Shown piece after piece: positions 362 through 21,829 of a stretch of 26,952 nucleotides of DNA. The position numbers and the translations under genes were made by a program. The stretch is taken from positions 1 to 26,952 of the forward strand of contig CAXHJY010001148.1 in assembly GCA_964016885.1 (NCBI GenBank). Reading direction: 5' to 3'. This DNA comes from Eledone cirrhosa. Lineage: Eukaryota. Every line of letters begins with the position of its first letter. Position 1 is the stretch's first letter. The notes beneath the pieces are model-generated. The model had not been told where the DNA came from and ran no database searches. It saw nothing but the letters and a program-made list of their open reading frames with translations.

Positions 362-500
362 TACTTAGGTTAATAGGAGTTAGGTATTGTATACCCGTGT
401 CCCCATTAAGGTATTGGCAGCATAATAATTAGCTCTATGCTTTGGAGCAGAGCCGTATATATGTTAAAGAACACAAGAGCGTCTACAACATCAAAAGATT

Positions 501-560
501 TTTTATTGGCTTACAATGTTTCTTCCTTACTTAACCGTAGGATTCGTCAGAGCTATAAAA
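501..560 (-). ncRNA. Minimal type I hammerhead ribozyme, family A
   Basis: Minus strand reads TTTTATAGCT-CTGACGA-A-TCCTACGGTTAAGTAAGGA-A-GAAA-C-ATT-G-TA-AGCCAATAAAA. Stem I GCT/AGC extended by TTTTAT/ATAAAA; predicted GUA cleavage site. Confidence 0.75.
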
Positions 561-904
561 GGGGTTTGATTGGTGTTATGGACTCTACCAACCAAACATT
601 CAAGAACAAAGATAAAGATAGTAAAGAGCAAAAGCAGGGGACGATAAGTAGTCGTGGATGGGGCTGCGATGTTCTTCAGTGATATAGGTAGGTAGTCTTT
701 AGTTAGCATGCTGCCAATCAATTATAATCATACACACAAGGTGGACAGGTTATAAGGATTTAGCTCAACCGGGGGGTGGGGGGGGGCGTAGAAATACTTA
801 GGTTAATAGGAGTTGGGTATTGTATACCCGTGTCCCATTAAGGTATTGGCAGCATAATAATTAGTTCTTTTGGTTGGTAAAGTCCATAACACCAATCAAA
901 CCCC

Positions 905-964
905 TTTTATAGCTCTGACGAATCCTACGGTTACGTAAGGAAGAAACATAGTAAGCCAATAAAA
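905..964 (+). ncRNA. Minimal type I hammerhead ribozyme, family A
   Basis: CTGACGA 915-921, stem II TCCTACG-GTTA-CGTAAGGA, GAAA 943-946, C-ATA-G stem III, predicted cleavage after GUA at 953. Confidence 0.75.
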
Positions 965-1330
965 ATCTTTTGATGTTGTAGACGCTCTTGTGTTCTTTAC
1001 CCATATATACGGCTCTGCTCCAAAGCATAGAGCGAATTATTATGCGGCAATACCTTAATGGGACACGGGTATACAATATCTAACTCCTATTAACCTAAGT
1101 ATTTCTACGGCCCCCCCCAGTTGAGCTAAATCCTTATAACCTGTCCACCTTGTGTGTATGATTATAATTGATTGGCAGCATGCTAACTAAAGACTACCTA
1201 CCTATATCACTGAAGAACATCCCAGCCCCATCCACGACTACTTATCGTCCCCTGCTTTTGCTCTTTACTCCTCTTTACTCTTTGTTCTTGAATGTTTGGT
1301 TGGTAGAGTCTATAAAACCAATCAAACCCC

Positions 1331-1389
1331 TTCTGTTGCTCTGACGAATCCTACGTTAAGTAAGGAAGAAACATTGTAAGCCAATAAAA
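1331..1389 (+). ncRNA. Minimal type I hammerhead ribozyme, family A
   Basis: CTGACGA 1341-1347, GAAA 1368-1371, predicted cleavage after 1378; 425 nt downstream of the previous site. Confidence 0.72.
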
Positions 1390-1432
1390 ATCTTTTGATG
1401 TTGTAGACGCTCTTGTGTTCTTTAACATATAT

Positions 1433-17444: not shown

Positions 17445-20400
17445 ATGACCCTCCCAAAGTATAACAATATCGGTTTCAACACACGATTTCAGATAAAGAA
17501 TCTTGCTAAACAAATTCAGAAACGAAATATCGTAAGCCTTAGCCAGGCTAACAAGATACTGAAAACCACCATGTTCTGTTGTCTACGAAAAACCATAACA
17601 TCTCGACAACTACACTTCATAAAACTGTGCACCACTTCTAGAATCTACACCAACACCATCAATACCGACGTTAGAAGATTACAACTCACCAAAAAACAAG
17701 CAGATAGGTTAAAACGAACTTTAATTCTAAACATAAAAAAGAAGATCTATAGAGAATTAAGTCATCAAGAAAAACTAAAGCGTAATCTAATAGATGAAAT
17801 ATCTAAAATCACCACACCAGCAGAAAAACTAACATTTATAAGCCTTATACGCCCCGAAGAACAGTACATTACTCAAGAATGTAATAAGCACTTTAACAGA
17901 AAATTAAAGTGGCTTAAACAGGCAAAGCTAAATCGGGATACTATAGAGTATACCAATAGATATCCCGACAAAATTGACGGTATCAACATGGCCGACACCT
18001 CATTATCTGAAGAGTTCAACAATGAAAATACCAACATTTATGGAAACACGGAAATAGATAATAATGAAATGTCTGTGTTACGTCTGCCACCCAAATTTGC
18101 AACATTCAAGAAGGTAAATATGATTAGTTGTCTGTCAGAAATAGAAAAATCATTTACGAAACTACGCTGGAGCATCAAAAACAAAAACAAAAGCAACAAT
18201 ATACGCACACACATATACAACACACATCCCAACAACAACAGACACACAGACACAAACAACAATAACAACAACAATAGCAACATACCCAGATACAACACCA
18301 ACAATAGCAACATACCCAGATACAACAGACACGCAGACACAAACAACAATAACAACACACACGGAGACAACAATATCAACAACAACAGCAACATACCCAG
18401 ATACAACAACAACAGACACGCAAACACAAACAACAATAACAACACACACAACAACGATAACACACACACACACGGAGACAACAACACACATCAACAACAA
18501 CACACATCAACAACAACAACACACACACATTCAATGCCTCTCACCACCACTACAATCTTAACAAACACACAGACACAGAAAACAAGTAATGACAGTAGCA
18601 CAGAAATCAGAGAAATAAGAGAAAGTAATAGGATTAAAAGGAGAAGGGAGACTAAGGACAAAGAGAATAACCAAGACGAACACACAGACACACAAAATAG
18701 GGTAGATAACAACATTGAGCCAGTGGAAAGAGACAGGAGTAATTATGAGAGACATAGAAACAACCATGAAGCTGAGGCTGCTGCTGTTGGTGGAAATAGA
18801 AACAACACAACTAACAATAGCACTAGTACACATAAAGCAGCAGCCTGGAACTCTCCGTTTTATAACCCCTCCGATAAATCATTCGACCTACGACGAGTCC
18901 ACGCCACGACTTTGCCATTTAACAAACGCACGCAGTTGCCGTCGCAGGTCGATGAACAAACAGAAGCACAATTTAGTATAGCTAAATCCGAACTTAGAAA
19001 TATTATAGAACAGTATAGCAAGAAGCATAATAGAATAGAGGCCCAGCAACTGGGAGAAGAATCTGCAAATGGCTTGCGTAAGCTCATGCAGCGCTCACGT
19101 AATGGAGAGATAGCATGCTTTCCAACAGACAAGTCTGGCAGAATGTCGGTTGACAGCCTGCCAAACTACATCCAGGCAATGCAACCCCACATCACTAACA
19201 CAAGAGAGGTAACACCACAGGAGCATGAGGATAGAGAAAAAACCCTCAATGCCCATATGGTGATGTGGACAAATATAATGCAGCCCAACAAAAGGACTGC
19301 CAACAACTTCCAGGCCTGGAACAATGACGTGCCGGCGTTGTATGGGCTTCGAAAAGACCATAAAACGGGCTGGGACCCTGTCGCGGGACCACCAACACGG
19401 CCAGTCTGTGGGGCTAACATTGCTAGTAACTACAGACTGTCCTACTTCCTCTCCCTGATCATACGCCCCATCATTGAGATGTACCCAGATGTGTGTGACA
19501 GCACGGAGGACCTCCTCAGCAGAATCGGCGCGGGTAACCGATCTGGGGACCTAACAAACTGCATAATAGGCAGTATGGATGTTGTGTCCCTGTATCCATC
19601 TATTGACGTGGATTTTGCTGTGGAGAAATGCGTCGAAATGATCAGCGAGAGCAAGGTTGAGTTCCGTGGGATTGATACCAGTGAGCTGGGACTTCTACTT
19701 AAGCTTACCCATAGTAATAGTTACCTAGACACTTATGACCTTAGCAACCTGTGCCCTACAAGACCAGCAAGAGGCAGACCACCTACCATTACCTCAATGG
19801 CCAAGAAAACCCACACAGATAGATGGAACGGGTGGACCAGAGCCATACGGACACCCGAAAACCACGATGAACTGAAGAAAATGATTGCACATGCGGTAGG
19901 GGCCAGCATAAAATTAACCCTTAAGGAACATATGTTCAAATTTAATGGTAAAACATATGCCCAAGAGGAAGGAGCAGCCATTGGTGTTAGCATTGCAGGC
20001 GACATAGCTAACTTGTTCATGGTATGGTGGGACAGTAGACTTAAACAAAAACTTAATGAACAATTAGAAGACAGCTTAACCCTGATAATGTACTCCCGCT
20101 ACGTAGATGATATAAACATCGTAGTTAAGACACCCCCACTAAAGAACAGTCAGGAACCAGAGACAGAGAAAAACACAATGGAAAGCATCCAGCAAATAGC
20201 AAACTCCATCCACCAGAGCATTAGAGTTACTATAGACTACCCAAGTAGACACCCCAACCATCGATTACCTGTACTAGACACAGAGCTCTGGTTAGATACT
20301 ATTAACAACCAAAAACAAATCCTCCATTCCCATTATGCCAAACCCATGACTTCCAAACATCTGATCCACCGAAACTCGGCCATTTCGGACCATACCAAAA

Positions 20401-21236
20401 TCAACATACTGATTGCGGATTCGGTACGGGTGATGAGAAATGTGTCCCGCATGTGCAACCCCGAAGAACTAGAGAGACACATACAACACTTCATCCACCG
20501 TATGCAGTTCTCTGGCTACAATCAGAGAGATAGAATCAGAGTGTATAAAGGAGCCAGAACCAAATGGGAAAAAATGGTAAATAATGACATAAATGGGACC
20601 TGCCCCTTGTATAGGAGCAAATTTTGGAATAGAATAGAAAGAACTAAGAACAAGGCCAATAGAATAAACTCATGGTATGATAGCAATAAATACCAGAGTG
20701 TAATGTTCATCAATACAACCCGTAGAGGCGAACTAGCCTACAAATTTAGAAGGGCCCTAAAGAAACATAATCTCAATATTAAGATAGTAGAAAGACCTGG
20801 TACCTCCGTAAAAACACTTATTAGCAAGACATACCCGTTCCAAAGACCCTCATGTATAGATAAGAAATGTATAACCTGTAAAATAAGCCCCCATATTAAC
20901 TGTAAAACTAGAAATGTAGTATATAGCATAAGATGTACTGAAGGACAATGTAGAAACAAAAATATAGTGTACATAGGTGAGACAGCTCGTAGTATAGGGG
21001 AACGAATAAATGAACACTGGCGAGACCTCCAAGATAGTAAAGAATCATCTGTGCTCTACCAACATGCTAAGATAGAACACAGGGGTAAATTAGAGAGCAT
21101 AGAAATAAAAATAGAATCCACACACAAGAAAGACGCAATGTTTAGGCAAATTACAGAGGCAGTAAGCATAAAAGAATTAAAACCAAAATTAAATAGAAAA
21201 TATGAGTGGAACAGCAACATCACAACTTACAATTAA
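17445..21236 (+). CDS. Penelope-like reverse transcriptase with C-terminal GIY-YIG endonuclease (~1263 aa from first ATG)
   Basis: PLE RT motifs [57 protein letters not shown]; Cys cluster [19 protein letters not shown] variant NVVY...[17 protein letters not shown]...EAVSI...LN; uninterrupted frame. Confidence 0.93.
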
Positions 21237-21430
21237 GGACAAAATGAAAACACACACACACATAGAACAAACAACTTACAATTGAAAACACACACAAAAT
21301 GAAAACACACACAAGACAAAATGAAAACACACACACACATAGAACAAACAACCAACCAACAATAAATAAATAAATAAACAAACAAATATAAATAGAAAAA
21401 TAGAAAAATGAACACAAACACACACAGACA
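21225..21430 (+). repeat. A/C-rich short tandem repeats in PLE 3' UTR
   Basis: Recurrent ACAAAATGAAAACACACAC(ACATAGAACAAAC) and ACAACTTACAATT units. Confidence 0.75.
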
Positions 21431-21487
21431 CCCGGATGTGGCGCATGCGCAAACTGAGCACGCAACCCACACACAAACAAAATGGCG
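21431..21487 (+). promoter_or_regulatory. Putative pLTR internal promoter (ETS, NRF1, YY1-like motifs)
   Basis: CCGGATGT 21432-21439, GCGCATGCGC 21441-21450, AAAATGGCG 21479-21487, clustered ~50-100 nt upstream of the hammerhead. Confidence 0.4.
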
Positions 21488-21533
21488 TAGGATAGAAGAA
21501 AGGAAAGGCACAGAAACGAAGAAAGAAATTCCC

Positions 21534-21578
21534 AGTCACTGAAGAGGTCACAGAGTGTGTGACGAAAGAACTATGACT
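21534..21578 (+). ncRNA. Minimal type I hammerhead ribozyme of PLE pLTR
   Basis: AGTCA-CTGAAGA-G-GTCAC-AGAGTGT-GTGAC-GAAA-G-AA-C-TA-TGACT; stems I and II perfectly paired; predicted CUA cleavage after 21573. Confidence 0.85.
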
Positions 21579-21829
21579 ATATATATATAAACAACTATCT
21601 GGTTGTGGAACCAACCAACCAACCAGAAATTTATAAATTTGTAAATTTATAAATATATATTAAATTAAATTGAAGTGAAAGCAACTGGTGCGTGTGTTTC
21701 TTATTGGCAACATGACCCTCCCAAAGTATAACAATATCGGTTTCAACACACGATTTCAGATAAAGAATCTTGCTAAACAAATTCAATATATATATATGTA
21801 TATATGTATATATATATATATATATGTAT

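Follow-up and report, generated by a model that had tools for sequence, protein, structure and literature searches.

We analyzed a 26,952-nt stretch of Eledone cirrhosa DNA (hereafter the window), which is the whole of a small contig (CAXHJY010001148.1) from the 3.0 Gb genome, and which carries hammerhead ribozyme motifs in two repeat families, A and B, and in the pseudo-long terminal repeats (pLTRs) of Penelope-like elements (PLEs). The initial annotation had read these as one system, in which A and B propagate through RNA circles as clients of the adjacent PLE. We found instead that B forms a new family of retrozymes whose PLE footprint can be tested, that A is a deletion derivative of a Hydra-clade PLE, and that the apparent system is shared targeting of (TA)n. 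The reading that we favor, with a probability of roughly 0.7, is that B is likely written into DNA by a PLE reverse transcriptase (RT)/endonuclease, plausibly that of the PLE family present in the window and probably from a monomeric RNA circle, and that A is a deleted Hydra-clade PLE likely moved by its parent.

A motif scan recovered all 21 hammerhead cores counted previously (nine in A, ten in B, and two in PLE pLTRs) and one additional chance CUGANGA..GAAA match within the PLE open reading frame (ORF). The 21 motifs are real, yet they do not form a single linked system. The nine A cores represent three motifs in each of three tandem copies of one ~2.66 kb block, and one of the two pLTR motifs, at positions 9015-9043, does not belong to the intact PLE but to a separate insertion that is shared with chromosome 1 (C1). 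In local Rfam scans only B gave a hammerhead match, a weak one (HH9, E 0.026, below the gathering score), while A and the PLE motif gave none; the scan of the whole window was dominated by TA-repeat miRNA models.

Judged by its sequence, B is a genuine, protein-free retrozyme family of the non-LTR kind. It consists of tandem units with one type I hammerhead each, and its exact 31-nt core occurs in 13,428 copies genome-wide (control, 0), a count that variants would raise and that bears out the dispersal to be expected of such a family. Two subfamilies, B1 and B2, have units of ~466 and ~424 nt and are ~75% identical. The fold of the monomer is far above that of shuffled sequences (z -8.4; -5.6 and -6.9 without the TA hairpin), with 97% of cells paired in the hammerhead region across B monomers and covariation in 7 of 122 pairs over ten monomers. 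The description of all motifs as minimal type I hammerheads held for A and the PLE motif, but not for B, in which helix I has 6 bp and a long extension, helix II has 4 bp above a U.U pair, and helix III carries a palindromic tetraloop; helix III is predicted to be weak, and a dimer would probably be needed.

None of the 55 B loci contained a PLE ORF with a B terminus, which leaves room for a rare parent among the thousands of cores, and the other fetched sequence held no homology to B outside TA repeats. Hydra-C, tried as a parent of B, was rejected, as its pLTR is unrelated. In the non-TA part of B, with the TA hairpin excluded, we saw no A-to-G editing scars, such changes making up 4 of the 91 private ones in B1 and none of the 32 in B2. 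Contigs from four sequencing runs of unknown kind covered B at very high depth in one, at low depth in another, and almost not at all in two, which says nothing on expression; the run of very high depth carries a common loop-2 variant. A third tandem hammerhead family, with a period of ~310 nt and U.U at the helix II base, was encountered at five loci (L071, L072, L138, L149, and L177).

The ends of B insertions were surveyed in these 55 loci, which were drawn from exact matches to the core within the initial 51 Mb of C1 and from top matches elsewhere. As many as 89 of 102 arm ends lay at a proximal or a distal site (the distal class being wide, 322-346, owing to subfamily indels), and 85 of those 89 were followed by (TA)n. 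Among 37 two-armed insertions, a count that leaves out one insertion truncated by the edge of its locus and another of complex structure, 27 had both ends at these sites and 10 had an end elsewhere. In 26 of the 27, one site of each kind was used (p 4e-7; a local duplication, L108, accounts for 2 of them), so that B has two fixed 3' ends and a tail at one end of inverted insertions. A tail at one end is a known PLE pattern (PMC8557442, PMC3846280), and for PAc, predicted to act as a dimer that cleaves both strands and extends them, it is explained by two RT start sites (PMC11167929). The 5' ends of B, read by eye, were spread out and did not evidently accumulate at the cleavage site.

The same use of one end of each kind was observed in 9/9 inverted copies of the window-PLE family with both ends at a site (by eye) and in 10/10 copies of the Hydra-clade family to which A belongs (Hydra-A). 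The distance between the two ends differed between families: 59 and 56 nt in B, 60 in the window PLE, 93 in Hydra-A, ~88-95 in other Hydra-like termini, and 80 in family X (L220-L249), which has 27,655 exact copies, two fixed ends, a (TA)n target, and, near its end, no visible hammerhead core. Most families escaped an automatic clustering of the other termini. B and the window-PLE family also have a TAT|CGT boundary in common. Thus, the spacing of B weakly suggests the window-PLE family over Hydra, as a pointer and not an assignment, and we consider the chances about even that the partner of B is this family or a close relative.

The arrays themselves suggest what kind of template was copied. 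In 14 of 17 B arrays no variant was common to a subset of units, the array in the window having 13 private variants and none shared, even though the consensuses of different arrays are 0-7% apart; the longest arrays have at least 18 units. It looks as if the units of an array were formed at once from one homogeneous template. Because such star-like variation favors a monomer template, a monomer circle is, somewhat more probably than its competitors taken together, the best explanation of these arrays.

Several points weigh against this reading of B. As to its partner, nothing in 863 kb of loci links B by homology to the window PLE or to any other PLE, so that the pointer weakly provided by spacing, measured in few families, and by the shared boundary has to carry the assignment. 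Moreover, B abuts other PLE-type families without intervening TA: Hydra-C at two loci (L113, L116) and family X at two (L101, L134), in the latter case head to head with a B arm. At one of the former (L116/L140, C1:36.25 Mb) a B dimer adjoins a 5'-truncated Hydra-C copy, possibly through a template switch. With many PLE families present in the examined loci, the partner could be another one (another Neptune type, Hydra, or family X), which we rate somewhat short of an even chance; the spacing of ~90 in Hydra-like families and 80 in X does not match the 56-59 of B, and as B 5' ends also join unrelated repeats, the direct joints fit target deletion.

As to the template, a very young homogeneous linear array would give star-like units too. 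B could thus be mobilized by a PLE from linear read-through multimers of young arrays, any circles being a by-product. In keeping with this, uncleaved RNA is the chief substrate of PAc in vitro (PMC11167929), the A locus points to linear templating, and the helix III of B is weak and probably requires a dimer (compare the axolotl motifs of PMC7229834). Two further observations weigh against the favored reading: PAc insertion does not need ribozyme cleavage (PMC11167929), and 8 of 9 retrozyme dimers assayed did not cleave (Li, Clavereau and Pollet 2026, 10.64898/2026.07.22.740005). We nevertheless find copying from linear multimers rather unlikely, as almost no in-register variants are common to both B arms, arrays reach the lengths given above, and copying from linear RNA alone should shorten arrays.

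Alternatively, B arrays could be satellites that grew by DNA-level duplication after the insertion of a monomer. Three of the 17 arrays have subset-shared variants (L124, with 16, L123, and L137), and the right-arm units of the A copy on C6 have a core mutation in common, which suggests that DNA-level duplication can make multimers, as it may have done in the A triplication of the window. The star-like pattern of the remaining arrays and the complete absence of the 11-unit B insertion from the C1 version make this improbable. Finally, the covariation counts given above mainly reflect the single B1/B2 split.

Returning to the circle and a PLE enzyme, we infer transcription, cleavage, circles, a dimer, and the partner of B, and the events could be arranged as follows. 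A PLE protein, probably a dimer, would nick both strands of (TA)n, with one end priming at the proximal and the other at the distal fixed RNA site. Each cDNA would extend a variable distance toward the RNA 5' end, and the two cDNAs would join head to head. A circular template would then give multimer arms, as in B, and a linear RNA with two pLTRs would give arms of no more than ~1.5 units, as in A.

Family A turned out to have a different origin. Its 426-nt monomer equals the first 331 nt past the hammerhead of a parent PLE plus the last 100 nt of that parent, with 93-95% identity, and most top A matches track the monomer to position 331 and then enter the RT ORF. This ORF carries RWR, DKT, CxCX5C, CxxC, and CxH, and thereby belongs to the Hydra clade by motif test. 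The A core has 733 exact copies, with parent sequence upstream in 28 of 30 fetched loci. Among 16 extended loci, 14 were autonomous-type copies and 2 were deletion derivatives (C6, C28). The exact deletion junction gave nine matches (six in the window, two on C1, and one on C7), compared with 32 for the undeleted continuation, and A-type deletions were found at only four loci, with three junction types. A is therefore not a tandem family dispersed independently of an ORF, and reads as an internally deleted autonomous Hydra-clade PLE, likely moved by its own parent. As the junctions on C6 and C28 differ from that of the window, yet sit at nearly the same place, the deletion recurs.

Accordingly, the earlier view of both families as non-coding, non-autonomous PLE clients with a multimer-inversion-multimer architecture stood for B, which is dispersed, ORF-less, (TA)n-targeted, and endowed with PLE-type ends whose spacing fits the window PLE, and which has arms of 7.5 and 3.4 units. 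It fell for A on a ground that the initial annotation itself had named: A consists of the terminal repeat and ORF start of another autonomous PLE that has lost its interior, has arms of ~1.2 and ~1.3 units, and has only a 12-nt chance match in common with the window PLE. The final units of both A arms carry two in-register variants that are missing from the upstream unit; these two sites fit copying from a linear RNA with two ribozymes and two unlike pLTRs, and not from a monomer circle. The A dimer on C6 was rejected as evidence of a circle, since the core mutation common to the two right-arm junction copies is missing from the left arm. The circular A monomer folded no better than shuffled sequences (z 0.1). 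In the Hydra-A hammerhead (positions 915-946 in the window), an A.A mismatch at the helix II base is present in all 733 exact copies and makes its activity uncertain. A candidate repeated recognition signal, TACGGC, follows each of the two Hydra-A start sites at a distance of a few bases (seen at 1010-1110 in the window and in Hydra-A termini).

The relation between A, B, and the intact PLE became clear from the comparison with C1. Unique segments of the window match C1:212.174-212.190 Mb collinearly (six segments of 214-1509 nt, with 0-7 substitutions each), so the window is probably an alternative haplotype of that locus. The C1 version has one A block vs three in the window, and plain (TA)n at the positions of the B array, the PLE, and the RTE element at 22666-26510. 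It also holds a 4.2 kb element that the window is without. The B array, the intact PLE, the RTE element, and A are independent insertions into one (TA)n stretch. As B and the PLE are missing from the C1 version while A is present, the nearness of the insertions says nothing about partnership, and the closeness of A and B to the intact PLE gene is likely due merely to the shared target. That both families propagate through circles as clients of the neighboring PLE, as their common (TA)n target and two-armed architecture had implied, is very hard to maintain: the parent of A is a Hydra PLE with a different end spacing, and the scarcity of A-type deletions and the independence of the insertions contradict it for A.

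The three A blocks of the window have 6 substitutions in common relative to the C1 block and 7-16 gap columns in each, and so the triplication appears to be either recent or an assembly artefact. The region 1-8400 is more indel-rich than the rest of the contig, a possible mis-assembly. The 4.2 kb element of C1 is an RT element (G000:C1:212179919-212184144, L042-L043) with poly(T) on both flanks. The LINE fragment listed in Table 1 is presumably CR1/L2-like by its motifs.

The ORF of the window PLE is open, as annotated initially. Pfam gave no match for the protein itself, and its homologs match RVT_1 and GIY-YIG; the closest of 186 is an Octopus vulgaris protein (67%). By its RT, CX2-5CxxC linker, C-terminal GIY-YIG domain with CCHH, and hammerhead pLTR, the element is of the Neptune/Nematis type. 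Its family has 14,889 cores. At the 5' end of the copy in the window, ahead of the truncated 5' pLTR, 46 nt from inside its ORF (18827-18872) are repeated in direct orientation (17362-17407). ATATCG is present at both start sites as a candidate repeated recognition signal.

Table 1. Features of the window
Feature	Position	Strand	Remarks
A insertion, copy 1	361..1432		arms 361-868 (minus) and 869-1432 (plus), with ends at sites 188 and 95, respectively
A copy 1 hammerhead cores	519-550(-), 915-946(+), 1341-1371(+)		
A block, tandem copy 2	3040..4113		no counterpart in C1; a duplication or an artefact of assembly
A block, tandem copy 3	5706..6776		
Window-PLE-family terminus, separate	8807..9122	-	5'-truncated; 85% identical to 3' pLTR; hammerhead 9015-9043; also in C1
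Short 3'-terminal window-PLE-family fragment	10369..10454	+	ends at distal site of family; not at this place in C1
B left arm	10477..14005	-	7 hammerheads in 7.5 units of 468-474 nt; (TA)n adjoins the 3' end, which lies at distal site 343
B inversion junction	14006..14051		patchwork of short monomer pieces
B right arm	14052..15629	+	3 hammerheads in 3.4 units; (TA)n adjoins the 3' end, which lies at proximal site 284
LINE (long interspersed nuclear element) RT fragment	15718-17226	-	5'-truncated; RVT_1; also in C1
PLE, Neptune/Nematis type	17362..21785	+	not in C1; 5' pLTR truncated, without hammerhead; 3' pLTR hammerhead 21539-21567
PLE ORF	17445..21236	+	1263 aa; RT (YVDD), CX4CxxC linker, C-terminal GIY-YIG-type endonuclease with C..C/H..H
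RT element with PHD-like insert	22666-26510		ORF 24101-26095; preceded by second partial copy; not in C1

The elements described here are real and of a known kind, and the idea of retrozymes mobilized by PLEs is already published. Tandem hammerhead repeats were described as non-autonomous elements with circular RNAs, for which PLEs are a strong candidate mobilizer (Cervera and de la Pena 2020, PMC7229834), and an origin of retrozymes from pLTRs was proposed (10.64898/2026.07.22.740005). B resembles the metazoan non-LTR retrozymes of these two reports in its tandem units of a few hundred nt, one type I hammerhead each, lack of ORF, thousands of copies, and self-paired fold. Its U.U at the helix II base corresponds to axolotl HHR_Amex2 and its palindromic tetraloop to HHR_Amex1, motifs of an animal whose hammerheads perform better as dimers (PMC7229834). 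B differs in its slightly longer units (422-538 nt), in its internal TA hairpin, and in having no pLTR homolog found; two-armed insertions with paired fixed ends were not found described in the available text of either report. The available text of an O. vulgaris repeat paper (PMC13282606) lacked the terms hammerhead and retrozyme, and our literature search found neither an account of retrozymes in octopods nor one of retrozymes with paired ends, although supplements may list such families.

The Hydra clade comprises (TA)n-targeting, hammerhead-bearing PLEs (Craig et al. 2021, PMC8557442), to which the parent of A corresponds in RWR (RWK-like), DKT, CxCX5C, C-terminal GIY-YIG with CxxC and CxH, hammerhead, and target, and from which it differs in being ~5 kb with a long 3' untranslated region vs <3 kb, with a tail of 93 nt. 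The ORF of the window PLE resembles those of Neptune/Nematis PLEs in its CX2-5CxxC linker (Frangieh et al. 2024, PMC11167929; A. vaga Penelope, PMC3846280). The insertions resemble those of PAc in two RT start sites that define the tail at one end of inverted insertions, in an AT-rich target, and in both strands being cut and extended (PMC11167929). In contrast to the Neptune/Nematis/PAc systems described, the tail of the window PLE is 60 nt vs 30-40, and the ends have a few bases in common with the (TA)n target (PMC11167929, PMC3846280).

Microhomology-mediated internal deletions and trans-mobilization via pLTRs were described for PLEs (PMC11167929; PMC3846280). In the case of A, recurrent deletions at a micro-similar site put two Hydra hammerheads 426 nt apart, as if a retrozyme were being born. 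A broader proposal, which we offer only tentatively, would combine this with end spacing as a signature of each family, by which orphan retrozymes could be matched to a PLE enzyme, and with B being rolled from an RNA circle by a window-PLE protein dimer that primes both target strands. In any case, A shows concretely how an autonomous PLE could give rise to a unit of retrozyme size. The spread of animal retrozymes by PLEs via circular RNA was proposed in PMC7229834 and 10.64898/2026.07.22.740005, in whose available text it comes without demonstration. In the E. cirrhosa genome, the B family is young and abundant, its start sites are mapped, a candidate protein has an open reading frame, and alleles without the insertion exist, so that this step could be tested in an existing in vitro assay.

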